64,000 nucleotides of DNA from Gammaproteobacteria bacterium (lineage in GTDB: Bacteria; Pseudomonadota; Gammaproteobacteria; Eutrophobiales; Eutrophobiaceae): NCBI GenBank assembly GCA_965248145.1, contig OZ252091.1:2626649-2690648 (forward strand). The letters are read 5' to 3'. Numbering within the stretch: the first letter of the stretch is position 1; every line of letters begins with the position of its first letter. Below are positions 5,179-59,579 of this stretch, in pieces. Position numbers and translations under genes: made by a program. The notes below the pieces were generated by a model. That model ran no database searches. It had not been told where the DNA came from and saw only the letters and a program-made list of their open reading frames with translations.

Positions 5179-6659
5179 TGGCTTTCCGCCTCTTTTTGCA
5201 GTTGTTGGATATATTTTGCCAGGTCATCAATTTCGACGCCCCTGGGTGGCGATACAATCTTCGCGTCACCGCCGATGGGGTCGGGAGGCATGAAACTGGT
5301 GGCGTCAATGATTAAACGATGGCCCTTGCCCGGAATTTCCGCGGCCGGGTCAATGATTACCAGAGGCATATTCGGTATGACGATAATATCGTTGGCGCGA
5401 GTGCGGGTGGACAAGGCCCACATCACCTGGTTGAGGTCAAAGGGATCGACGTCATCATCCACCAGGATAAGATTTTTCAGGTACATCAGGCCATGGGGCG
5501 TTCCCAGGGCGCGCATGGCCACTGACTTGGCAAAACCGGCAAACCGATTCTTCACTGAAATAATCCCGGTCAGGCCATGCTGGTACAAGGCATTCACCGC
5601 GACAACCTCAGGGAAGTTTTCCTTTAACTGGGAATAGATGGGCGCACTAGTGCTCAGCCCGATCAGCGTATCGTGTTCGGTCCAACCTTTGCCGATATAA
5701 ATATTTTCAAAGATCGGGTCGGTACGGTGGGAAACGGCGGTGACCTGGAATAAGGGGACATGCCGGATACCGCTGTAACTGCCCGGAAATTCTCCGAACG
5801 GCCCCTCCAGGCAACGCCGGTTATTCAGCAACTGCGCTTCTATTACCATCTCCGCGCCGGCGAGAATGTCCAGACCGTTGCCGGAGCGGGTCAATTCAAT
5901 GGGACTGCCCATCATCTGCGAGGCATAGGCAAATTCCGATTCATCGTAATTGACGGGCGTGGCGGCAAACATGGCCATGGCCGGGTGGTTGCCGAGCATC
6001 ACGGCGATTTTCAGCGGGACATCATCCTCTTCCGCCATGCGGATCTGTTGCGCCATATCGTGGGACGGGACGGACAACAAGGTGAACTTATCCGGACCTT
6101 GTACCTGGATGCGATAAATTCCCACGTTCTGTTTGGAAAAATTATCCGGGTCACGGGGATCGCGACTGACGATATTGGCCTTGGCAATATAAAAACCACC
6201 GTCCAGGGCATTGATACGATACAGGGGCAGCAGGTCATACAGGTTGACATCGGTCTTGATCCTGTTCTCATTCACCGGTGCGTCTTCCGGTTTCACCCTG
6301 TCTATCAACGGCCGGTCGGAACCCCAGCGACCCGTCAGTTCGTAGAATAATTCCCTGATAGTGGTCCCTTTCTGCCGACCCAGCAGCAAGGCAATATTGG
6401 AAAAACTGCCATGCACCCCTACCACGAGCCGTTTCCCCGGATAGCCGCGGATCTTGTCGAACAGGATGGCCGGCCCGGTCATCGCGTCGCGACCCGCCGC
6501 AACAACAACCTTACGGATATCGGGTTCAGGCATCACGACATCCGGCCAGGTAATACACTGTCCGTGCTCGGCCAGTAATTCGAGATAATCCCTCAAACAG
6601 CGGACCCGTTCGGCTACGGCCCGGGCCTCGGTCGATAAGCTGGAGGTTTCCATATCCAT
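5175..6659 (-). CDS. UbiD-family prFMN-dependent (de)carboxylase (VdcC/BsdC-like hydroxyarylic acid decarboxylase).
   Basis: 494 aa, with UbiD-family conserved blocks. Its start overlaps the stop of the preceding cytochrome c gene, and it is followed by a D-subunit gene with ubiX nearby. Confidence 0.85.
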   Translation of the reverse strand: MDMETSSLSTEARAVAERVRCLRDYLELLAEHGQCITWPDVVMPEPDIRKVVVAAGRDAMTGPAILFDKIRGYPGKRLVVGVHGSFSNIALLLGRQKGTTIRELFYELTGRWGSDRPLIDRVKPEDAPVNENRIKTDVNLYDLLPLYRINALDGGFYIAKANIVSRDPRDPDNFSKQNVGIYRIQVQGPDKFTLLSVPSHDMAQQIRMAEEDDVPLKIAVMLGNHPAMAMFAATPVNYDESEFAYASQMMGSPIELTRSGNGLDILAGAEMVIEAQLLNNRRCLEGPFGEFPGSYSGIRHVPLFQVTAVSHRTDPIFENIYIGKGWTEHDTLIGLSTSAPIYSQLKENFPEVVAVNALYQHGLTGIISVKNRFAGFAKSVAMRALGTPHGLMYLKNLILVDDDVDPFDLNQVMWALSTRTRANDIIVIPNMPLVIIDPAAEIPGKGHRLIIDATSFMPPDPIGGDAKIVSPPRGVEIDDLAKYIQQLQKEAESQ

Positions 6660-11920: not shown

Positions 11921-12426
11921 GGTGACTTTCTCCTTTTTCATGTTGATGTTGCTAAATAGTAAAAGAGTAACGGGAGCATGTCAAAGTTAACAGTATGTCG
12001 CCAGGAGCGACTTATTGCACACGCAGAGGTTTGTCACACTCATTATCTTTGCGTGTGCAATGTGCGACCTGTCCCCCGTGTCCCCCGGACCCCACTGTCC
12101 CCCGATACGGGACCGTACACATTATATGTTACAGATACTGACAGTTTATCTATTCCTAACATTGATCTATACTGTTCCATACCATATATGATACGCTGTT
12201 TTATAAATACATAACATGCCCGTTTTCGTATCAGCGTACCGGGCAAGCTCTATCATGCCCGGTTTTGGCAGACGCGATGAGACGGGCAGATCATTAGAGG
12301 AGATAACGCGAATGAGATTTGAAAAAGCCTATTATGGTTGGACAGCGCGGCGCTTAACCCGGGAGGCTGCGGCGACAGTTGAGCAACCGGTTTCACACAC
12401 TATCTTCGCGAACCGCTAACAAAGGC

Positions 12427-12456
12427 TTGACATTCCTGATTTTTACTCACTAATAA
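12427..12456 (+). promoter_or_regulatory. Sigma70-like promoter (TTGACA - 17 nt - TAATAA) directly upstream of, and overlapping, the ATG that precedes the heptanucleotide repeat.
   Basis: Read directly: TTGACAttcctgatttttactcacTAATAATG. It marks the sharp boundary between AT-normal DNA and the GC-rich island. Confidence 0.35.
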
Positions 12457-13883
12457 TGTTCGACCGAGAGCCGAGAGCCGAGAGCCGAGAGCCGAGAGCC
12501 GAGAGCCGAGAGCCGAGAGCCGAGAGCCGAGAGCCGAGAGCCGAGAGCCGAGAGCCGAGAGCCGAGAGCCGAGAGCCGAGAGCCGAGAGCCGAGAGCCGA
12601 GAGCCGAGAGCCGAGAGCCGAGAGCCGAGAGCCGAGAGCCGAGAGCCGAGAGCCGAGAGCCGAGAGCCGAGAGCCGAGAGCCGAGAGCCGAGAGCCGAGA
12701 GCCGAGAGCCGAGAGCCGAGAGCCGAGAGCCGAGAGCCGAGAGCCGAGAGCCGAGAGCCGAGAGCCGAGTTGTGTCCGCAATTCGCCGGGGCGCGCCATG
12801 CCCCGGCTGGACGCAGCGTCACGAAGCGCGCCGCCTGAGCCTTCCCGGGCCGCGCGCTTCTTCCGCCCTGCCGATTGTTTCCTCCGCGTCGGGGCGGGGC
12901 TTGCGCGGGCGGGACGCCGTGGCCTCCCGGCGGGGCTGCTTGCAATCGTGTTGCTGGTCTTTCCGGTCGCTGCCGGAGCCGGGGCCGGCAATGCCACCGG
13001 CAGGCCGAGTTTTTCGGGGCAACCGATCCAAACCGGGGTGATTACCGCCATCACCAGCGGGATCGGGGATCCCGACGGGGTGGACACCGGCACTTTCGCA
13101 TACGAATGGCTTCGCTGTGACTCGACCGGCAACAACTGCAATACCACTGCCGGGACGGCCTCGACCTATACGCTGACCAATGCCGATATCGGCTTCAGGT
13201 TCAGGCTGCGGGTGAACTTCGAGGACAGCGATGGCAATGCCGAGTCGCGCACCAGCTTTCCATGGCCATCACGCTCCGGGAATGCGATCTACGCGTACCC
13301 GGCCTGCGCCGAGTCGGACTTGACGAGTCTCGACAGTATGAACCGAACGGCAATCTGGACCGGGACGCTGACGGTGGGGTTCTTCAAACAAGACAACACT
13401 TCCTTCTATGGGCGGGGACGGAGAGCTGGAACTTGGTACGGTCAACTCACCGATTCAGTGTTCTCTATCGATTCGAAAAACTACAGATTGCGCCTCCTCA
13501 ATTCGGAAGACGGCGGGACGGGGGACGGTGACCTTAACGTCGTATTCTACACCGCAACAAATGAAGCCTTGGGAAGCGCACACTACGCCGCACACCGCGC
13601 CGCTCTTGAGGAATATGCTCAAGTGCACATCTGCGACAAGGCGTTTGTCATAAGCGAAGCATCAAATTCGAACAGAAGTACGTATGTTTTTCTCGCTGCT
13701 TTTGAGCCCTTTCTGAGCGGGAGCACCCGGACGATACGCGTGAGCGTGCCGAATTCACTCTTGAACGCCGCACCGGAATCGATGGACAACAGCGTGGCGA
13801 CCAACGAGGACGAGGCCTACACCTTCCAGGTAAGCGACTTCCACTTCACCGACCCCGACATGGGGGCGCGCTCGCGAGCGTGA
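12456..13883 (+). CDS. 5' part of a giant GC-rich surface adhesin-like gene: heptamer repeat, signal/TM-like segment, cadherin/VCBS-like repeat. It is interrupted by a frameshift at about 13862-13866.
   Basis: Hydrophobic LLAIVLLVFPVAAGAGAG segment. Repeat module GVITAITSGIGDPDGVDTGTFAYEWLRCDSTG...YTLTNADIGFRFRLRVNFEDSDGNAES. The C-terminal domain (...YTFQVSDFHFTDPD) continues in the next ORF in another frame. Confidence 0.6.
   Translation: MFDREPRAESREPRAESREPRAESREPRAESREPRAESREPRAESREPRAESREPRAESREPRAESREPRAESREPRAESREPRAESREPRAESREPRAESREPSCVRNSPGRAMPRLDAASRSAPPEPSRAARFFRPADCFLRVGAGLARAGRRGLPAGLLAIVLLVFPVAAGAGAGNATGRPSFSGQPIQTGVITAITSGIGDPDGVDTGTFAYEWLRCDSTGNNCNTTAGTASTYTLTNADIGFRFRLRVNFEDSDGNAESRTSFPWPSRSGNAIYAYPACAESDLTSLDSMNRTAIWTGTLTVGFFKQDNTSFYGRGRRAGTWYGQLTDSVFSIDSKNYRLRLLNSEDGGTGDGDLNVVFYTATNEALGSAHYAAHRAALEEYAQVHICDKAFVISEASNSNRSTYVFLAAFEPFLSGSTRTIRVSVPNSLLNAAPESMDNSVATNEDEAYTFQVSDFHFTDPDMGARSRA
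12464..12769. repeat. Heptanucleotide simple sequence repeat, (CCGAGAG)n equivalent to (GAGAGCC)n, about 43 perfect copies.
   Basis: Perfect 7-bp periodicity over ~305 bp starting 6 nt after ATG 12456. Translated it gives (REPRAES)n in all three frames. Unit length is not a multiple of 3, so copy number sets the reading frame. Confidence 0.95.
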
Positions 13884-16800
13884 AGCTGGTGTCCCTGCCG
13901 GCGAAGGACACGCTCAAGCTCTTAACCGTGGCGGTGACGGCGAACCAGGTGGTGCCGGCGGGCGAGATCGGCAACCTGACCTACACCCCGGCCGAGAACG
14001 GGAACGGACCGGGCTACGACAGCTTCACCTTCAAGGTCAACGACGGCACCGACGATAGCGCGACGCCCAACACCATGACCATCGACGTGGCCTCGGTGAA
14101 CGACGAGCCGACGGGCCTGCCGACCATCACCGGCACGCTGACCGTCGGCCAGACGCTGACGGCGGACACCAGCGCCATCATGGACGTGGACGGGCTGACG
14201 AGCCCCGGCTACGGCTACGAGTGGATGCGGGCGGACCCGGGCCCTGTGAACCAGGAACCCATCGCCGGCGCGACCATGAAGACCTACACCCTGACCGACG
14301 CCGAAGCGGGCAAGGTGATCGCGGTGTCGGTGGCCTTCACCGACGACGGGGGCAGCAAACGGAGGCTGACCAGCGACTACTATCCGACAAGCGACACGGT
14401 GGCGGCCATCGCCCCCGGCAAGCCGAACGAACTCTTGGCGACGCCGGGCAACGCCCAGGTGACGCTGGATTGGATGGAGCCGACGAGCGACGGCGGGGCG
14501 GACATCACGGGCTACGAGTACCGCTGGTCGGAGGGCTCGACGGTGCCGGATAGCACGGCCTGGACCGCGGTGGCGGGCGGCGGCGTGCGGACGGTCGTCG
14601 TGACCGGCCTCGTCAACGACACGCAATACGCCTTCGAGGTGCGCGCGGTGAACAGCGCCGGCCCCGGCCCGGCGTCCGGCCCGGCGACCGCGACGCCGAC
14701 GGTGCAGTGGCGGCTGGTCAACGGGGCCGTGGCGCATGAGGGGCGGCTGGAGCTGCTCCACAACGGCGCGTGGGGGACGGTCTGCGACGACTACTGGACC
14801 GATGTCGAGGCGGACGTGGCGTGCCGGGCGGTGGGCTACTCAGGGGGCGCGGAGCGCTCGGAGCCGGGCGCGGAGCAGTTCCGGCGAGCCTATTTCGGCC
14901 AGGGCACGGGCGCCATCTGGCTCGACGACGTGAACTGTGTGGGCGACGAGGCGAGCCCGCTGATGTGTCTGCACGGGGGGGTCGGGGTGAACAACTGCGA
15001 CCACCGGGAGGATGTCGGGGTGCGGTGCAGGACGACCACGACGCCGCGGGTGGAGTCCATCGAGGTGAGCCCTGCGCCCGGGGGGAACGGGCGCTACGAC
15101 GCGGGCGAGACGCTGGCGGTGACGCTGGTGTGGAGCGAGCCGGTGACGGTGGCGACCCCGGCAGGCGCCCTGGCGCCGAAGGTGTGGGTCGCGTACGGCG
15201 TGGGCGTGGAGGCCAGGGCGGAGTATGCGAGCGGGTCGGGGACGGCGCGCACGGTGTTCGCGCACACGCTGACGCAAGCCGACAAGTTGGTGGATGACGG
15301 CGGACCGGTGTCGTACGAGGAGGTGCAGGTGTACCGCAACAGCCTGCGGCTGCGCGGCGGCGCCATCACGTCGGTGGCGGCCGGGGTGGCGGCGGCGCTC
15401 GGGCACGACGGGTACCCGGACGCGGCGCGCCAGCTCGAGGCGGCGGTGGTGGTGGGGCCGCCCGGCCTGAGCGCGGCGGGCGCCGACGGGGTCTGGGGTG
15501 CGGGCGAGACGGTGGAGGTGACGCTCGCCTTCAGCCGCGCGGTGACGGTGGACACGGCGGGCGGCACGCCGACGGTGGGTCTGCGGCTCGGCGGCTCGGC
15601 CGGGCGCAGCGCCGCCTACCTGCGCGGCAGCGGGACGACGGTGCTGGTGTTCGGTTACACGCTCGCCGGCGACGACGGCGCGCACACTGCGCTGCTGGTG
15701 CCGGAGAACAGCCTGGCGCTGAACGGCGGCGCCATCCGGGGCCGGCTGGCGGGGCTCGACGCGGCGCTCGGCCACGACGGCGCGGGCGAGGTGGTGGCGC
15801 CGCCGCCGCCGGGTGGGGCGTCCGGTCCGACGGCGCGCTTCGAGGGGCTGCCCGCGGCCCACGAGGGATCGGGCGCGTTTTCGTTCGAATTGCACTTCAG
15901 CGAAGAGCCCGAGGGCTTGAGCTACACGACGGTGGGCGGCGGGCTGCTCACGCTGAGCGGCGGCGCGGTGAGCGGCGCGCGGCGCCTCGCGCAGGGCAGC
16001 GATGCGGGCTGGGCGGTGAGCGTCGAGCCGGCCGGGGACGGCGACGTGATCATTAGCCTGCCGGCGCGGGCGTGCGGCGAGACGCACGCGATGTGCTTCG
16101 CCGGGCGGCCGCTGGCGGAAGCGGTCTCGGCGACGGTGCCGGGAGCGTCTTCGACGGCGACGGTGCCGCGGACGCCGTTCACGGCGTCGTTCTCCGGCGT
16201 GCCGCCGGAGCATGACGGCGCGGGCGCGTTCACCCTCACCCTCGCCTTCGGCGCGGAGCCGGCGGGGCTGAGCTACCGGACGGTGCGGGACAGCCTGTTC
16301 ACGGTGACCGGCGGCGCGGTGACGAAGGCGCGGCGGCTCAGCCCCCCATCGAACCGGCGCTACGAGCTCACCGTCGAGCCCGCCGGCGACGCGGCGGTGA
16401 GGCTTGCGCTGGCGGCGCTGCCGGCCTGTGGTGTGGCGGGTTCGGTGTGCACGGCGGACGGACGCGCGCTCTCGGGAGCGCTCTCGGCGACGGTGCCGGG
16501 TCCGGCGGCGCTCTCGGTTGCGGATGCGAACGTGCGCGAGGGGCCGGGGGCGGTGCTGGCGTTCCGGGTCACCCTCGACCGGACGCGCCATGCCGCGGTG
16601 ACGGTGGACTACGACACCTCGGACGGGGCCGGGACCAAGCCCGCGAACGCGGGTACGGACTATACCGCGAAGAGCGGCACGCTTACCTTCGCCAGCGGGG
16701 AGAGCAGCAAGACAGTCTCAGTCGTTGTGCTTGATGACAGCCACGACGAGGGTGCGGAGACAATGTCCTTGACGTTGTCGAACCCGTCCGGCGCCAGCAT

Positions 16801-17305
16801 CGCTGATGCCACGGCAACGGGGACTATCAACAACACCGATGCCATGCCGCTGGCCTGGCTGTCCCGCTTTGGCCGCACCGTAGGGACGCATGTAATGACC
16901 ATGGTGGACGAGCGTATGCTGGCGGCCTCGCAGCAGGCGTCCCACCTGACGTTGAATGGCCGACAGATGCAGTGGGGTACGCCGGGGTCGGCAGATACCA
17001 GTCTGTCCGAACGCACCCGCGCCCTGCTTGGCAACTGGACCCGGGACCGGCAGTCACTGGAGAGCCTGCTGAGCGGCAACGTGGGAGCAAGCCCGCGCGC
17101 AGTCCTGTCCCGCAGTTCGTTCTATTGGACCAATATGCCCGCGGACGGGTCGGATACAGGACAAGGAGTCGCCTCCGGCGACACCTTATTTGATTGGACT
17201 CCGGGTCAAGCCCGGAGTAATGACGGTCGGGGCAGGAATGACAACGGAGGCAACACCGTCACCCCGGGCTTGACCCGGGGTCCAGTTGATAATGTGTCGC
17301 CGTAG
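13880..17305 (+). CDS. 3' part of the giant adhesin-like gene, carrying a cadherin/VCBS-like repeat, a fibronectin type III domain, an SRCR domain, repeated Ala/Gly-rich beta modules and a Calx-beta domain.
   Basis: FN3 at ~14411-14700 (PGKPNELLATPGNAQVTLDWMEPTSDGGADITGYEYRW...). SRCR at ~14707-15030 (WRLVNGAVAHEGRLELLHNGAWGTVCDDYW...CVGDEASPLMCLHGG...VGVRCR). Calx-beta at ~16507-16840 (…DYDTSDGAGTKPANAGTDYTAKSGTLTFASGESSKTVSVVVLDDSHDEGAE…). The GTG 'start' is really the continuation of the upstream ORF. Confidence 0.6.
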   Translation: MKLVSLPAKDTLKLLTVAVTANQVVPAGEIGNLTYTPAENGNGPGYDSFTFKVNDGTDDSATPNTMTIDVASVNDEPTGLPTITGTLTVGQTLTADTSAIMDVDGLTSPGYGYEWMRADPGPVNQEPIAGATMKTYTLTDAEAGKVIAVSVAFTDDGGSKRRLTSDYYPTSDTVAAIAPGKPNELLATPGNAQVTLDWMEPTSDGGADITGYEYRWSEGSTVPDSTAWTAVAGGGVRTVVVTGLVNDTQYAFEVRAVNSAGPGPASGPATATPTVQWRLVNGAVAHEGRLELLHNGAWGTVCDDYWTDVEADVACRAVGYSGGAERSEPGAEQFRRAYFGQGTGAIWLDDVNCVGDEASPLMCLHGGVGVNNCDHREDVGVRCRTTTTPRVESIEVSPAPGGNGRYDAGETLAVTLVWSEPVTVATPAGALAPKVWVAYGVGVEARAEYASGSGTARTVFAHTLTQADKLVDDGGPVSYEEVQVYRNSLRLRGGAITSVAAGVAAALGHDGYPDAARQLEAAVVVGPPGLSAAGADGVWGAGETVEVTLAFSRAVTVDTAGGTPTVGLRLGGSAGRSAAYLRGSGTTVLVFGYTLAGDDGAHTALLVPENSLALNGGAIRGRLAGLDAALGHDGAGEVVAPPPPGGASGPTARFEGLPAAHEGSGAFSFELHFSEEPEGLSYTTVGGGLLTLSGGAVSGARRLAQGSDAGWAVSVEPAGDGDVIISLPARACGETHAMCFAGRPLAEAVSATVPGASSTATVPRTPFTASFSGVPPEHDGAGAFTLTLAFGAEPAGLSYRTVRDSLFTVTGGAVTKARRLSPPSNRRYELTVEPAGDAAVRLALAALPACGVAGSVCTADGRALSGALSATVPGPAALSVADANVREGPGAVLAFRVTLDRTRHAAVTVDYDTSDGAGTKPANAGTDYTAKSGTLTFASGESSKTVSVVVLDDSHDEGAETMSLTLSNPSGASIADATATGTINNTDAMPLAWLSRFGRTVGTHVMTMVDERMLAASQQASHLTLNGRQMQWGTPGSADTSLSERTRALLGNWTRDRQSLESLLSGNVGASPRAVLSRSSFYWTNMPADGSDTGQGVASGDTLFDWTPGQARSNDGRGRNDNGGNTVTPGLTRGPVDNVSP

Positions 17306-17319
17306 GCGACTGCAACGAG

Positions 17320-18744
17320 TTATAACGGTTTTGACAGGAAATCCCAGAAGACTATAAAAAAGATCGTCGACAGCGCCAGCGTCAGAAGCATAACCGGCAG
17401 GCCCTTCCTGAACCAGAGTCCGGGCGTGATGCGCAGGCTCGGATCATTCTCGTTTCTTGCCAAGCGCTCTGAAATCGTCACGATGAACACGTTTGCAGTG
17501 GACCCGATATGAGTCCCGTTGCCGCCCATACCAACCCCTACGGCCAATCCCCACCACAGCGGAGTGACATTAATCCCTGCCGATTCCATACTCAAAATGA
17601 TGGGTATCATCGCTGCCGTAAAAGGAATATTATCGATGGCCGCGGACAGGGCAGCCCCCGCCCACATCAATACGATGGTTGCCATCAGCAGGTCCTGTTG
17701 CACAAACGGTGTAATAAACTGGCCGAGATACATAAGAAACTGGCTGTGTTCCACACCGCCTACCAGCATGAATAATGAAATAAAGAACACCAGCAAGGTG
17801 ATTTCCACGTGTTCAAACGTGTTGTCCATGATGATTTTGCGGGAGGCATACATCAGCGCCACCATTCCTACCGCCGCGACAAACCAGGGCTCCCAGTGCA
17901 GGAGATGATGGAACATGAACAGAACCACCATGATCCCAAGGATGATTAAGGAAGCGTTCCATACTCTCTTGTTTTTCAACTCTACCGAGTAATCAGATAC
18001 GTCTTCAGGGATCTGGGCAAGTTCCTGTTTGAACAGGAATTTCAGCAGGACCAGCACGCCTATCCAGGCGATGAATACCGGTGGGACCATATGGATGGCA
18101 AAATCATTAAACGAGATATTTGCCGCCGAACCTATCATCAGGTTGGGAGGGTCGCCTACCAGGGTGGCAACGCCGCCCGTATCAGACAACAAGGCGGCAG
18201 CCAACAGGTAAGGGATCGGCGTAATCTTTTGCGCCCGGGCAATCAGGATGATAAGAGGGCCGAAAATGACCACTGTCGTGACATTATCCAGCAACAATGA
18301 TAAGACCGTAACGCAGCTGCCTATCAAGGCCAGTAATAAATATAACCGGCCTTTGCTGAAATTGGCGATCCGGTAAGCCAGCATATCGAAACCACCGGTG
18401 GGGATCATGATGGCAACCACGGTCATCATGGCGCCCAACAGGAAAACAACGTTCCAGTCCACGGCCTCTACTGCCAGTTCCGGTGAGTAAAAACCATAAA
18501 TCTGCCCCACAATCACCATGGTGACAGCGCCCCCTGCCGCTATCTTCATCCGTTCCAGACCGTGCAGCATTTCAGTAAAAATGCCGACAAAGGTGAGGGC
18601 CAGTATGATTGCCGACACCAGCATCGCTTCACTAAATACCAACGGGCCATCCACCGTCATTGCCTGTTCCTGCCCGGATACGGCAAGAGCCAGGGCGGGG
18701 AATAATACGGTTGCTAAAATCGTGAAGATAATTCTTATTATCAT
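17320..18744 (-). CDS. ArsB/NhaD-superfamily permease (anion or Na+/H+-type transporter).
   Basis: 474 aa, polytopic, with the LDNVTTVVIFGPLI and GDPPNLMIGS motifs typical of the ArsB/NhaD permease superfamily. Confidence 0.55.
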   Translation of the reverse strand: MIIRIIFTILATVLFPALALAVSGQEQAMTVDGPLVFSEAMLVSAIILALTFVGIFTEMLHGLERMKIAAGGAVTMVIVGQIYGFYSPELAVEAVDWNVVFLLGAMMTVVAIMIPTGGFDMLAYRIANFSKGRLYLLLALIGSCVTVLSLLLDNVTTVVIFGPLIILIARAQKITPIPYLLAAALLSDTGGVATLVGDPPNLMIGSAANISFNDFAIHMVPPVFIAWIGVLVLLKFLFKQELAQIPEDVSDYSVELKNKRVWNASLIILGIMVVLFMFHHLLHWEPWFVAAVGMVALMYASRKIIMDNTFEHVEITLLVFFISLFMLVGGVEHSQFLMYLGQFITPFVQQDLLMATIVLMWAGAALSAAIDNIPFTAAMIPIILSMESAGINVTPLWWGLAVGVGMGGNGTHIGSTANVFIVTISERLARNENDPSLRITPGLWFRKGLPVMLLTLALSTIFFIVFWDFLSKPL

Positions 18745-50049: not shown

Positions 50050-50225
50050 TCCGACGCCGCTCGTTAGTTCTGGGTAGTTCTGGGGACACGGGGTAGTTCT
50101 GGGGACACTAGTTCTGGGGACACAATACTTGGGTAGTTCTGGGGACACAATACTTAATTTCCAATTAGTTCTGGGGACACAATACTTAATTTCCAATTAG
50201 TTCTGGGGACACAATACTTAATTTC
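50050..50225. repeat. Array of 6 direct REP-like units (TAGTTCTGGGGACAC[AATACTTAATTTCCAAT]) immediately upstream of the RAYT gene.
   Basis: Direct reading. The same REP consensus (GTTCTGGGGACACAATACTTAATT) occurs singly or in inverted pairs at about 43030, 43140, 44585, 44640, 50910, 51800-51920, 52365, 56000 and 56130. Confidence 0.75.
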
Positions 50226-50239
50226 GGTATACTGTTAAT

Positions 50240-50908
50240 ATGGCAAGACTGACAAGGATCGTTCTACCCGGTTATCCCCACCATGTGACCCAGCGGGGCA
50301 ACCGTCGCCAGGATGTATTTTTTTGTGACGGCGATTTGCAGGCTTATCTGACTCTACTCAAGCAATGGTGCGCCAGGGAGTCGGTGCAGGTCTGGGCGTA
50401 CTGTCTGATGACCAACCACGTCCATCTGATTGTCAAACCGGAAGAAGGTTCCAACCTTAGCCGGGCCATCGGGGAGACACACAGGCGTTACACAAGGATG
50501 ATAAATTTTCGGGAACAATGGCGCGGCTATTTGTGGCAGGGTCGGTTTGCTTCCTTTGTGCTGGATGAACCGTGGTTGCTGCAGGCGGTTGCGTATGTGG
50601 AATATAATCCGGTGGCGGCGGGGATGGTAGCTCGGCCCTGGGATTATCGTTGGAGTAGCGTCCATGCCCATTTGGCTGGGGAGGACTCTCTGGGGATAGT
50701 GGAGGTAGCTCCGTTACTTGATTTAGTTGGGGGCGACTGGCAGGCCTACTTGAGTTCGTACAAGGTAGATGGGGACGGGAACTTTGCAACCCATGAGCGC
50801 ACGGGCAGACCTTTGGGGGATGAGGGATTTATTGACAGGATTGAGAGTGCGTTGAGCCGGGTGGTGAGAAAGAAAAAACCGGGGCCAAAACAACGGCAGG
50901 ATAATTAA
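50240..50908 (+). CDS. REP-associated tyrosine transposase (RAYT, IS200/IS605 Y1 HUH family).
   Basis: The HUH motif MTNHVHLIV and a downstream catalytic-Tyr region. Length 222 aa. It is flanked by REP arrays. Confidence 0.8.
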   Translation: MARLTRIVLPGYPHHVTQRGNRRQDVFFCDGDLQAYLTLLKQWCARESVQVWAYCLMTNHVHLIVKPEEGSNLSRAIGETHRRYTRMINFREQWRGYLWQGRFASFVLDEPWLLQAVAYVEYNPVAAGMVARPWDYRWSSVHAHLAGEDSLGIVEVAPLLDLVGGDWQAYLSSYKVDGDGNFATHERTGRPLGDEGFIDRIESALSRVVRKKKPGPKQRQDN

Positions 50909-50999
50909 GTATTGTGTCCCCTGAATTAATTAAAACTATAGTACCTGATAATACAGAATTTTCTTGAAATTATAACACCTAGTATTATATATTGATTGT

Positions 51000-57108: not shown

Positions 57109-57288
57109 TGCATATTCCAGATGAAACCTGCCACTAATTCCATAGCAAGCCTGCCACCCATTCCACGCGAAAGCTGCCACCCATTCCAGAGCAAGTCTGC
57201 CACCCTGTAAAGCAGGATTAGGGAGACCTGTCGACGCAGGATAACATCACGGTATCCTGAGCTTTTCTCAACCAGGGGAGGAGTTCAG

Positions 57289-58830
57289 ATGCCAGCTAAG
57301 AGGTTATCCATGCGCAAGATAAAAGAAGTACTTCGCCTGAAATGGGCAAACCATTGCAGTAACCGCCAGATCGCCAGGATCTGCAGTATCAGCCGTCCCA
57401 CCGTGGCTGAATATTTACTACGGGCACAAACGGCCCAGCTTGGCTGGCCACTAGCGCCAGAGCTGGATGATGGTGAGTTGGAACAACGCTTATTCCCCGC
57501 GACACCCAACCTGCCTGCCAGTGCACGCGGGGTGCCGGATTGGCCCGGCGTCTATCAAGACATGAGAGGCAAGAGCGTCACCCTGTTCCTGTTGTGGCAG
57601 GAGTATCGGGCAGGGTACCCGCAAGGGTATCAGTACAGTTGGTTCTGTCAGCACTATCGCGACTGGTTGAACAAACGGGACCCGGTGATGCGTCAGCACC
57701 ATCGCGCCGGTGAGAAGTTGTTCGTGGACTATGCCGGCCAAACCATCGGCGTGGTTGACAGCAGCACCGGTGAAATCCGTGATGCCCAGGTCTTTGTGGC
57801 CACGCTGGGCGCCTCCAACTATACCTATGCGGAAGCGACCTGGACGCAGACATTACCGGATTGGATAGCTTCCCATCAACGGGCCTTTCAGTTTATTGCG
57901 GGCGTGACCGAGGTCGTGGTCCCCGATAATTTACGCGCCGGGGTATCCAAAGCCCACCGTTACGAGCCGGACATCAATCCGACTTACCAGGACATGGCTG
58001 CGCATTACAACGTCGCCGTGGTACCTGCCCGTGTCAGGCGGCCCAGGGACAAAGCCAAGGTCGAAGTTGCCGTACAGGTAGTGGAACGTTGGATCCTGGC
58101 GGCGCTTCGCCGGCATACATTCTTCTCACTCGGTGAACTCAACCAGTGTATTGGACAACTGCTGACAGAGTTCAATGAACGGCCCTTCCAGAAATTACCG
58201 GGTTGTAGAAAAAGCGTGTTTGAAGCAGTGGATAAACCCGCACTGAAACCACTACCGACCAAACCCTACCAATACGCCGAGTGGAAAAAGGTGCGGGTCC
58301 ACATTGACTACCATGTCGAGGTCGATGGCCATTACTACTCGGTACCTTATACGCTGATCAAACAACAACTCGAGGCACGTATGACCCACTGTACGATTGA
58401 ATGCTTCCATAAAGGCCAGCGGGTGGCCAGTCATCCTCGCTCCCGGATAAAAGGGCGGCATACCACGGTGAACGAACATATGCCGACAACGCACCGGCAA
58501 TATGGTGACTGGTCGCCGCAACGTTTGACTGCCTGGGCAGAGAAGATGGGACCGGCCACTGTCAACGTGGTGACCCACATCCTTTCGGCCAGAGTACACC
58601 CGCAACAGGGTTACCGCGCCTGCTTAGGGATCTTACGTCTGGGTAAGGCCTATGGTGAGGCACGATTGGAAGCCGCCTGCCAACGGGCCGGACAACTCGG
58701 CACCTACCGCTATAGAAGTATTGAATCGATCTTGAAACACCGTCTGGAGAACCAACCCCTCCCGGCACAACAAGAACAGAACCTACCCCAGGACCACGGC
58801 AATATCCGTGGTGCTGATTATTATCAATAA
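57289..58830 (+). CDS. istA: IS21-family transposase IstA.
   Basis: 513 aa with an N-terminal HTH (MRKIKEVLRLKW...) and a DDE integrase core. Confidence 0.9.
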   Translation: MPAKRLSMRKIKEVLRLKWANHCSNRQIARICSISRPTVAEYLLRAQTAQLGWPLAPELDDGELEQRLFPATPNLPASARGVPDWPGVYQDMRGKSVTLFLLWQEYRAGYPQGYQYSWFCQHYRDWLNKRDPVMRQHHRAGEKLFVDYAGQTIGVVDSSTGEIRDAQVFVATLGASNYTYAEATWTQTLPDWIASHQRAFQFIAGVTEVVVPDNLRAGVSKAHRYEPDINPTYQDMAAHYNVAVVPARVRRPRDKAKVEVAVQVVERWILAALRRHTFFSLGELNQCIGQLLTEFNERPFQKLPGCRKSVFEAVDKPALKPLPTKPYQYAEWKKVRVHIDYHVEVDGHYYSVPYTLIKQQLEARMTHCTIECFHKGQRVASHPRSRIKGRHTTVNEHMPTTHRQYGDWSPQRLTAWAEKMGPATVNVVTHILSARVHPQQGYRACLGILRLGKAYGEARLEAACQRAGQLGTYRYRSIESILKHRLENQPLPAQQEQNLPQDHGNIRGADYYQ

Positions 58831-58847
58831 ACCTGAAGGAGAGCGCG

Positions 58848-59579
58848 ATGTTACACCATCCCACCCTGGAGAAATTAACCACCCTGAAATTCACCGGCAT
58901 GGTCAAAGCCCTGACGGAGCAAACAGCCTTACCCGACATTGAGCAACTGAGCTTTGAGGAGCGGTTAGGATTGCTGGTTGACCGGGAACTCACCGAGCGG
59001 TATGACCGCCGCTTGCAGACCCGCTTGCGCAAAGCCCGGTTAAAACAACAGGCCTGCATTGAAGATATTGACTACCGCCATCGCCGCGGTCTGGATAAAT
59101 CACTCTTCACTCGCTTGAGTCAGTGCCAGTGGGTGAAAGAGCGCCTCAATATCCTCATCACCGGTCCGACCGGTGTCGGCAAGACCTGGTTGGCCTGTGC
59201 CCTGGCACAAAAGGCCTGCCGGGAAGGTCATACGGCGCTCTACCTGCGCCTGCCACGCTTACTGCAGGAACTCCCCATTGCCAAAGGTGATGGTAGTTAC
59301 TCTAAACGGATGGCCGCACTGGCCAAAACCGACGTCGTGGTACTGGATGACTGGGGCCTGGCCAAACTTATTCCAGAACAACAGCGTGATTTACTCGAGC
59401 TACTGGAAGACCGACATGGCACCCGCTCTACTTTGGTCACCAGTCAATTACCTGTCGATAAATGGTACGATATCATCGGCGACCCCACCTTGGCAGATGC
59501 CATCATGGACCGACTGATCCATAACGCATACAAAATCAATTTGAAAGGAGAATCCATGCGAAAACAAAAATTAAGTTGA
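58848..59579 (+). CDS. istB: IS21-family helper ATPase IstB.
   Basis: Walker A GPTGVGKTWLA and Walker B VVVLDDWG. Length 243 aa. Confidence 0.9.
   Translation: MLHHPTLEKLTTLKFTGMVKALTEQTALPDIEQLSFEERLGLLVDRELTERYDRRLQTRLRKARLKQQACIEDIDYRHRRGLDKSLFTRLSQCQWVKERLNILITGPTGVGKTWLACALAQKACREGHTALYLRLPRLLQELPIAKGDGSYSKRMAALAKTDVVVLDDWGLAKLIPEQQRDLLELLEDRHGTRSTLVTSQLPVDKWYDIIGDPTLADAIMDRLIHNAYKINLKGESMRKQKLS

Follow-up and report, generated by a model that had tools for sequence, protein, structure and literature searches.

A stretch of 64,000 nucleotides from an uncultured gammaproteobacterium (GenBank assembly GCA_965248145.1, contig OZ252091.1, positions 2,626,649 to 2,690,648), referred to below as the window, carries two adjacent open reading frames (ORFs) at 12456-13883 (ORF1) and 13880-17305 (ORF2). 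ORF1 comprises 475 codons and ends with ...FTDPDMGARSRA*, and ORF2 comprises 1141 codons and begins with VKLVSLPAKDTLKLL; translation bears out both ORFs and their termini as described in the initial annotation of this DNA. To judge from their sequences, they are the halves of one ancestral gene for a large multi-domain surface protein, which is broken by a single-base frameshift inside a conserved domain. The parts of the locus on which this interpretation depends are the following.

12798-13883, forward strand: 5′ half of the broken gene in frame 0, ending at TGA 13881-13883, five codons past the frameshift (translations, Pfam)
13860-13870, forward strand: lesion interval, with one base missing relative to an in-frame ancestor, spanning the run of five G at 13862-13866
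13764-14089, forward strand: Big_9 (weakly Cadherin_5) domain, which begins in frame 0 and ends in frame 2, with the break about one third of the way in (Pfam, alignments)
13880-17305, forward strand: 3′ part of the broken gene in frame 2, with the rest of Big_9, a second A9-like module, fn3, SRCR, unnamed repeat modules and Calx-beta

The sequence at 13855-13885 is CCGACATGGGGGCGCGCTCGCGAGCGTGAAG, and direct reading places the GGGGG run (G5) at 13862-13866, where the initial annotation had put it. Runs of this kind are common in the window, which holds 23 G5 and 27 C5 tracts. The codons of ORF1 start at positions that are 0 mod 3 and those of ORF2 at positions that are 2 mod 3, therefore the two frames can be joined only by the addition of one base or the removal of two. 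With one base added (G6), the joined product contains DMGGALASVKL (DPDMGGALASVKL; in the longer translation ...FTDPDMGGALASVKLVSLP...), and with two bases removed (G3) it contains DMGALASVKL (DPDMGALASVKL; in the longer translation ...FTDPDMGALASVKL...). Deletion of one G from the run, which had been proposed as the repair, yields ...DPDMGRAREREAGVPAGEG... in the third frame and not in that of ORF2; the peptide printed with this proposal (DMGALASVKL) requires the removal of two bases, and the state that merges the ORFs is G6 rather than the predicted G4. The window sequence is thus one base short, not one base long, when compared to an in-frame gene. The stop codon of ORF1 and the GTG of ORF2 overlap by four nucleotides (GTGA), and the frame of ORF2 is open upstream as far as a TGA at 13703, i.e., from 13706, with GTG 13880 being merely its first start codon.

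Base composition follows the same change of frame. The GC content of third codon positions (GC3) is high in frame 0 over 13760-13879 (0.9) and in frame 2 over 13880-13999 (0.97), with the frames swapping exactly at the site, and the rise in GC3 starts near 13700, about 150 nt upstream of the frameshift. Since the rise precedes the site and the swap of frames falls on it, the lesion is an indel, and the foreign DNA on its two sides is continuous. The same observation rules out a recombination joint, which was also considered, as only the frame changes at the frameshift.

The break falls within a single Big_9 domain. Pfam was run on the +1-repaired protein starting from ATG 12798, in which Big_9 (PF17963) scores 31.6 bits, with a gathering cut-off of 23.6 (E 3e-7; profile positions 1-83 of 89; residues 323-423), and this cut-off is reached only once both frames are joined. 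Cadherin_5 (PF17892) scores 19.6 bits, below its cut-off of 26.5, and the two matches together cover residues 323-431; the term 'cadherin-like', by which the domain had been described, is therefore a loose one that expresses a resemblance only. The repaired 140-residue segment gives an unbroken alignment to modules of more than 30 homologous proteins, with 47-58% identity and E values down to 1e-38. In an alignment with 45 homologous modules, F-x-D-x-D is conserved in frame 0 and L-x-S-V-K-(V/I)-x-x-L-P in frame 2, and the presence of conserved motifs on either side in these two frames confines the lesion to approximately 13860-13870. The spacing between the D and the V among 194 homologous modules is that of the +1 repair in 153 (79%) and that of the -2 repair in 34, and every one of the 194 is encoded in one frame, without a break. 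These comparisons show that the splitting of the domain by the frameshift is real and not a chance effect. The initial proposal of a gene split inside a conserved domain by a 1-nt frameshift is upheld by a Big_9 domain that spans the repaired junction and aligns to homologous modules, but the statement that the repair restores a module of the same type seen upstream is not: neither self-BLAST nor Pfam, which gives one, finds a second Big_9 or cadherin-like module in the gene.

The alignments also bear on which base was lost. Of the 194 homologous modules, 154 (79%) have Asp at the broken codon and 7 (4%) have Gly. ATG GGG GAC GCG CTC without its A equals the window sequence, and ATG GGG GGC GCG CTC without one G gives the same sequence, so that the lesion is most simply placed either inside the run, with G6 shortened to G5 and GGC (Gly) as the original codon, or between G13866 and C13867, where GAC (Asp) would have lost its A. 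With Asp (GAC) as the consensus at the broken codon, which the initial annotation had not noticed, the base that went missing is not necessarily one of the homopolymer and may have been the A of GAC, outside the run. The loss of a G from G6 would be a homopolymer-length event and the loss of A from GAC would not; the family prior favours the loss of the lone A, whereas the bias of mutation and of sequencing error favours the loss of a G, and the two are not separable here.

In addition to the frameshift, the gene is truncated at its 3′ end, which had escaped the initial annotation and favours a pseudogene. The region concerned is made up as follows.

16754-17146, forward strand: remnant of a C-terminal module, with the end of Calx-beta, the junction motif AMPLAWLSRFGR, a predicted helix and a linker up to SSFYWT (BLASTP, TBLASTN, alignment A1)
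17147-17305, forward strand: read-through tail, non-homologous, up to the first stop; GC drops to the host level
17320-18744, reverse strand: intact, convergent CitMHS/ArsB-type transporter gene, 14 bp beyond the ORF2 stop

The motif (A/P)MPKAWLARFGRTV follows Calx-beta in 24 homologues, 14 of which extend beyond it by more than 480 residues and have an aromatic residue at their end. The window gene covers only the first ~130 residues of this C-terminal region, as far as SSFYWT at nt 17146, and the homology stops before the barrel (alignment A1). TBLASTN of seven homologue C-termini matches nothing else in the 64 kb. The predicted barrel (~400 residues) of a C-terminal module of ~520 residues is absent from the window gene. 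The missing part has no Pfam match and nothing significant in a PDB profile search. An AlphaFold (AF2) model of the homologue module, which was built from an alignment and has a predicted local distance difference test (pLDDT) score of 57, consists of a helix followed by many long antiparallel strands. Its top Foldseek matches are all outer-membrane barrels, namely PapC, TamA, EspP, Hbp, AIDA-I and TonB-dependent receptors, with template modelling (TM) scores of 0.2-0.37. The model suggests that the part missing from the window gene is, in the homologues, an outer-membrane barrel in an autotransporter-like layout, without establishing membership of type Va. If so, even a frame-repaired gene would lack its presumed export and anchor module, and with the barrel lost independently a fixed frameshift would be unremarkable, as the gene would be non-functional as a surface protein regardless of the G run. 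The module of ~520 residues is itself widespread, and is composed of the motif AMPKAWLARFGRTV, a helix, a linker, the predicted beta-barrel and the aromatic end; it may be an undescribed autotransporter-like translocator family.

The remaining domains of the gene were located with Pfam.

13083-13214, forward strand: IG_AIR9-like domain, in the 5′ half
14447-14692, forward strand: fn3, in ORF2
14717-15031, forward strand: SRCR (PF00530), full profile, E 1e-24
16514-16828, forward strand: Calx-beta, in ORF2

The probable true start, as inferred from sequence, is ATG 12798 (MPRLDAAS...), downstream of the annotated ATG 12456, and 46 residues past it lies a hydrophobic signal-like segment (LLAIVLLVFPVAAGAGAG, 12936-12989), which is a putative signal peptide. 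When translated alone from GTG 13880, ORF2 starts in the middle of a domain and has no signal peptide of its own. The IG_AIR9-like domain is followed by an ORF1-specific region of ~180 residues that is without homologues; in a search of 5.8 billion proteins, its best match had 40% identity over 30% of the query, which yields no orthologue. Modules of the gene are common to hundreds of large modular metagenomic proteins. A search with the full repaired protein recovered only its own ORF2 at 100%, with all others at no more than ~65% identity over parts of the query, and neither of the two protein searches uncovered an intact or differently broken orthologue that would reveal the ancestral sequence. 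A cluster look-up yielded neither names nor accessions for the two ORFs or for a paralogue that the genome also carries (see below). The architecture would suit an adhesin. SRCR, a eukaryote-like domain, is unusual in a bacterial protein; a few metagenomic homologues also have it (P0029, P0056, P0087).

The composition of the gene points to a foreign origin. The GC content of the window averages 52%, it reaches 70-77% over 14000-17000, and GC3 is 0.87-0.97 over 14000-16699, which marks this part as a foreign insert from a high-GC donor in a gammaproteobacterium of ~50% GC. In a scan of GTDB genomes, RpoC assigns the organism to the Gammaproteobacteria and no further: its best match, at 81% identity, is an uncultured MAG labelled Gammaproteobacteria bacterium SFB_Poly_Co_19, the others reach 74% at most, and the scan gave no close relative. 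GC3 falls to 0.5-0.65 at 13340-13750, in the region without homologues, between the A9-like domain (~0.8) and Big_9 (at least 0.9). This mosaic composition suggests that the 5′ part of the gene was put together from DNA of differing origins.

A perfect tandem repeat lies immediately upstream of the likely start.

12464-12769, forward strand: (CCGAGAG) in 43.7 copies (Tandem Repeats Finder: period 7, 100% matches)

The repeat stands between the annotated ATG 12456 and the likelier start ATG 12798, is in frame with the former, where it encodes (REPRAES)n, and is presumably the 'first' slippage-prone tract implied by the initial annotation. With 43.7 copies it far exceeds the cut-off for phase variation by simple sequence repeats (SSRs), which is at least 3 copies for units of 6-9 bases (PMC5953494). 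Directly upstream of the repeat a TTGACA is found at ~12429, but no acceptable -10 box of a sigma-70 promoter at a spacing of 16-18 nt. Five copies of CCGAGAG in tandem are found in at least 120 Joint Genome Institute (JGI) metagenome contigs. Among the matches listed, 80 (CCGAGAG)n loci (L083-L162) were read, nearly all of which have flanks of 60-80% GC and typically 5-15 copies; in some of them the repeat directly follows a stop codon, and in a few an inverted (CTCTCGG)n is found nearby. The variant heptamers CCGAAAG, CCGAGGG, CCGAGCG and CTGAGAG adjoin some of the metagenome repeats. The 44-copy tract of the window is 3-8 times longer than the metagenome tracts that were read.

The interpretation that we favour, with a probability of about 0.6, is a genuine 1-bp deletion in a decaying pseudogene. 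The ancestral gene would have encoded a signal peptide, an A9-like domain, the domain without homologues, Big_9, a further A9-like module, fn3, SRCR, repeats, Calx-beta, a helix and a barrel, possibly with adhesin and type V-like functions. A gammaproteobacterium of ~50% GC would have acquired it from a high-GC donor, and one base would then have been lost in 13860-13870, at or directly after G5. Translation of the 5′ half would leave Big_9 and stop five codons further on, and the 3′ part would be left without a signal peptide of its own. The whole C-terminal beta-barrel would have been lost separately, with the gene decaying as a pseudogene.

That the deletion is biological, and not an assembly error, is suggested by the state of the surrounding sequence. 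The gene shows the features by which pseudogenes are recognized: its frame is broken inside a conserved domain, and a part present in full-length homologues is lost. Seventeen other large genes of the window, among them the seven largest nuo genes, are covered by Pfam matches from end to end and contain 101 homopolymer runs of at least 5 bases, all in frame. ORF2 holds eight further in-frame runs of this length, including G7 at 14975, G6 at 15080 and C6 at 16342, and the 5′ half has four besides the G5 in question. In a second locus of the same genome, three genes (the paralogue, an LRR gene and rpoC) hold 38 more. One suspect run among ~150 limits the per-run error rate to ~2% or less. The nominal coverage is 98x according to the label of the 3,765,412-bp contig (ctg362337_98x_c, ENA analysis ERZ25766727), the style of which resembles an older metaMDBG header and would then imply PacBio HiFi data, and other frame errors nearby are lacking. 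Furthermore, the same-genome paralogue P0008, which resides in a 71-77% GC island beside rpoBC (locus L002), is also split, and not at a homopolymer. At its break (~5925-5945) the fn3 domain ends in GPETATP and passes directly, in a different frame, into EDTAYTF, with the first Big_9 strand absent. Such a junction looks like a deletion that shifted the frame rather than like a homopolymer slip, and would mean that foreign genes do decay in this genome. The ORFs of the paralogue lie at L002 5099-6058 and 6001-13164 (record 2,943,662-2,962,825). P0008 itself is a 2387-residue surface protein with an intact C-terminal barrel, and the overlapping 303-codon ORF ahead of it also starts in the middle of a domain. 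The island spans 13 kb, abuts rpoC/rpoB, and also carries an LRR/cadherin-like gene of more than 3322 residues.

Several points weigh against a genuine deletion in a pseudogene. The flanks of the site, with any 3-8 bases replacing the run, have 0 matches in JGI metagenome contigs (exact-flank DNA scan), and the protein collection searched contains neither ORF in a second version. The count of in-frame runs does no more than bound the error rate. The very high GC3 suggests that the gene arrived recently, so that neutral lesions would have had little time to build up, and an open frame of 1141 codons at 72% GC is evidence neither way. The barrel model is of low confidence (pLDDT 57), for a module without a Pfam or PDB sequence match. 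Residual errors of long-read metagenome assemblies are mostly homopolymer indels (PMC11392814), and frameshift-truncated proteins occur in such assemblies (PMC13087279). It is possible, though less likely, that the true sequence is in frame (G6 or GGGGGAC) and that the consensus dropped a base, in which case there would be a single ORF of ~1500 codons, still barrel-less. The position of the lesion at or beside the G5 run, the origin of the contig from a metagenome assembly, and the seemingly recent arrival of the foreign DNA would all agree with such an artefact, but the other ~150 runs are in frame, among them the longer G7, G6 and C6 of this gene and 25 that lie in further high-GC genes of the genome, none of the 17 large neighbouring genes examined is cut short, and the coverage is nominally 98x. 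Moreover, if the A of GAC was lost, as the 79% Asp consensus would have it, no homopolymer-length error is involved.

Explanations that give the frameshift a function, or deny that it is one, fare worse. The initial annotation named a sequencing error, a pseudogenising mutation and a slippage-prone tract, which proves to be the right set, but the three are of unequal likelihood, and slippage is poorly supported, with G5 well below nine bases and G7 and G6 tolerated in frame. It is very unlikely that G5/G6 slippage acts as an ON/OFF switch, forming a two-tract contingency locus with the upstream heptamer repeat. The product is surface-protein-like, the +1 repair could equal a G6 state, and the very long perfect heptamer upstream belongs to a class of repeat used for adhesin phase variation in the hmw1A gene of H. 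influenzae (PMC12721329). However, G5 is far below hypermutable lengths, for which the PhasomeIt cut-off in Neisseria is at least nine G (PMC5953494), the G7 and G6 runs of the same ORF have stayed in frame, and G6 is not conserved, with Gly at the broken codon in just 7 of 194 homologous modules. A switch would also be pointless on a gene that lacks its C-terminal barrel. Equally improbable is the broader proposal of a two-tract contingency locus (the G run plus the 44-copy heptamer) that governs a horizontally acquired SRCR surface protein, with G5 and G6 subpopulations side by side in the sample, or, as an alternative to it, of a -1 slip on G GGG G of low efficiency that yields some full-length protein. 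Programmed recoding is harder still to credit: a -1 slip of tRNA-Gly from GGG 13863-13865 to 13862-13864, or transcriptional slippage, would have to produce the full-length protein. The slip on G GGG G would allow perfect re-pairing in the P site and give the same DMGGALASVKL as the G6 repair, but there is no X XXY YYZ heptamer, since the 0 frame reads G GGG GCG and the A-site codon cannot re-pair, and 13850-13960 does not exceed shuffled sequences in the stability of its fold (minimum free energy of -44.2 versus a mean of -46.9 kcal/mol, z = +0.81). With neither a slippery heptamer nor a stable downstream RNA structure, programmed -1 frameshifting is rejected; the arrangement is not conserved either, as 194 of 194 homologous modules have no break. 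Known transcriptional slippage takes place on long A or T runs, and G5 is too short for it. The notion of two separate, translationally coupled genes with a 4-nt GTGA overlap is just as remote. It would accord with their deposition as two coding sequences (CDSs) and with the overlap of the ORF1 stop and the ORF2 GTG, but ORF1 ends and ORF2 begins within a single Big_9 domain, ORF2 would thus start mid-domain without a signal peptide, its GTG is only the first start codon of a frame open from 13706, and the protein searches found no homologues arranged as two genes split at this point. The best reading is therefore that the frameshift has no regulatory role and that the locus is an ordinary decaying pseudogene.

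The yadA gene of Yersinia pestis is inactivated by a single-base deletion. By analogy, the locus would behave like the frameshift-inactivated adhesin and autotransporter pseudogenes of host-associated bacteria, of which yadA is an example, as they share a 1-base deletion in a large surface-protein gene, an early stop and further decay. In contrast to these, no intact orthologue was found here, the gene is foreign DNA of high GC inserted in the genome of an uncultured gammaproteobacterium, and the deletion is known from one assembly. Homopolymer phase variation, such as that of the pilC poly-C/G tract in pathogenic Neisseria (PMC5953494), resembles the site in having a G run in a surface-protein frame, where ±1 base switches the frame, but the window run has 5 bases where the cut-off is 9, longer runs of the same gene are in frame, and the anchor domain is lost. 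The hmw1A and hmw2A genes of Haemophilus influenzae carry an (ATCTTTC)n heptamer in the 5′ untranslated region of the adhesin gene (PMC12721329, PMC2424069). The CCGAGAG tract is similar in being a long perfect heptamer immediately upstream of the likely start of a surface-protein gene; it differs in its unit, in its 44 copies, in being in frame with an upstream ATG, and in the lack of a canonical promoter found upstream. The homologues of the window gene are also similar to type Va autotransporters (EspP, Hbp, AIDA-I) in having a signal-like segment, a long modular passenger, a helix, a predicted barrel and an aromatic end, and the Foldseek matches of the homologue module include the barrels of EspP, Hbp and AIDA-I. 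However, this module has no match to the Pfam Autotransporter family (PF03797) or to the PDB, the TM scores of 0.2-0.37 come from a model with a pLDDT of 57, ushers, TamA and TonB-dependent receptors score equally, and the window copy itself is barrel-less.

For annotation, the two CDSs of the deposited record (475 and 1141 residues) should become a single entry, marked as a disrupted and 3′-truncated gene, instead of counting as two proteins. The site also illustrates that the obvious repair of a homopolymer can err in direction, and that the lost base may lie outside the run. The locus adds one more case in which an environmental or symbiotic gammaproteobacterium has taken up foreign, eukaryote-like genes for surface proteins that then decayed. 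The finding is an ordinary one that opens no new question, and its practical value is the correction of the annotation.

Elsewhere in the window, an Rfam scan gave no match. The motif TGTCCCCNG is enriched, with 13 sites versus 2.6 expected, and 0 of 100 shuffles reach 13. Its sites are found at 12070-12104 and 50080-50211, with single ones at 50915, 51907, 52377 and 56024. Three direct copies lie ~350 bp upstream of the CCGAGAG repeat, and another six, placed shortly before a gene at 50240, lie within tandem repeats of 19 and 32 bp (TAGTTCTGGGGACAC...); these sites could be operator- or iteron-like. Further downstream, a gene with rve and Mu-transposase C-terminal domains (57289-58830) comes after four 23-bp repeats in tandem (ATTCCAGACGAAACCTGCCACCC, 57114-57205) and is followed by a 243-codon ORF. 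The region as a whole (57114-59579) looks like the end of a Tn7/Tn5053-type transposon.

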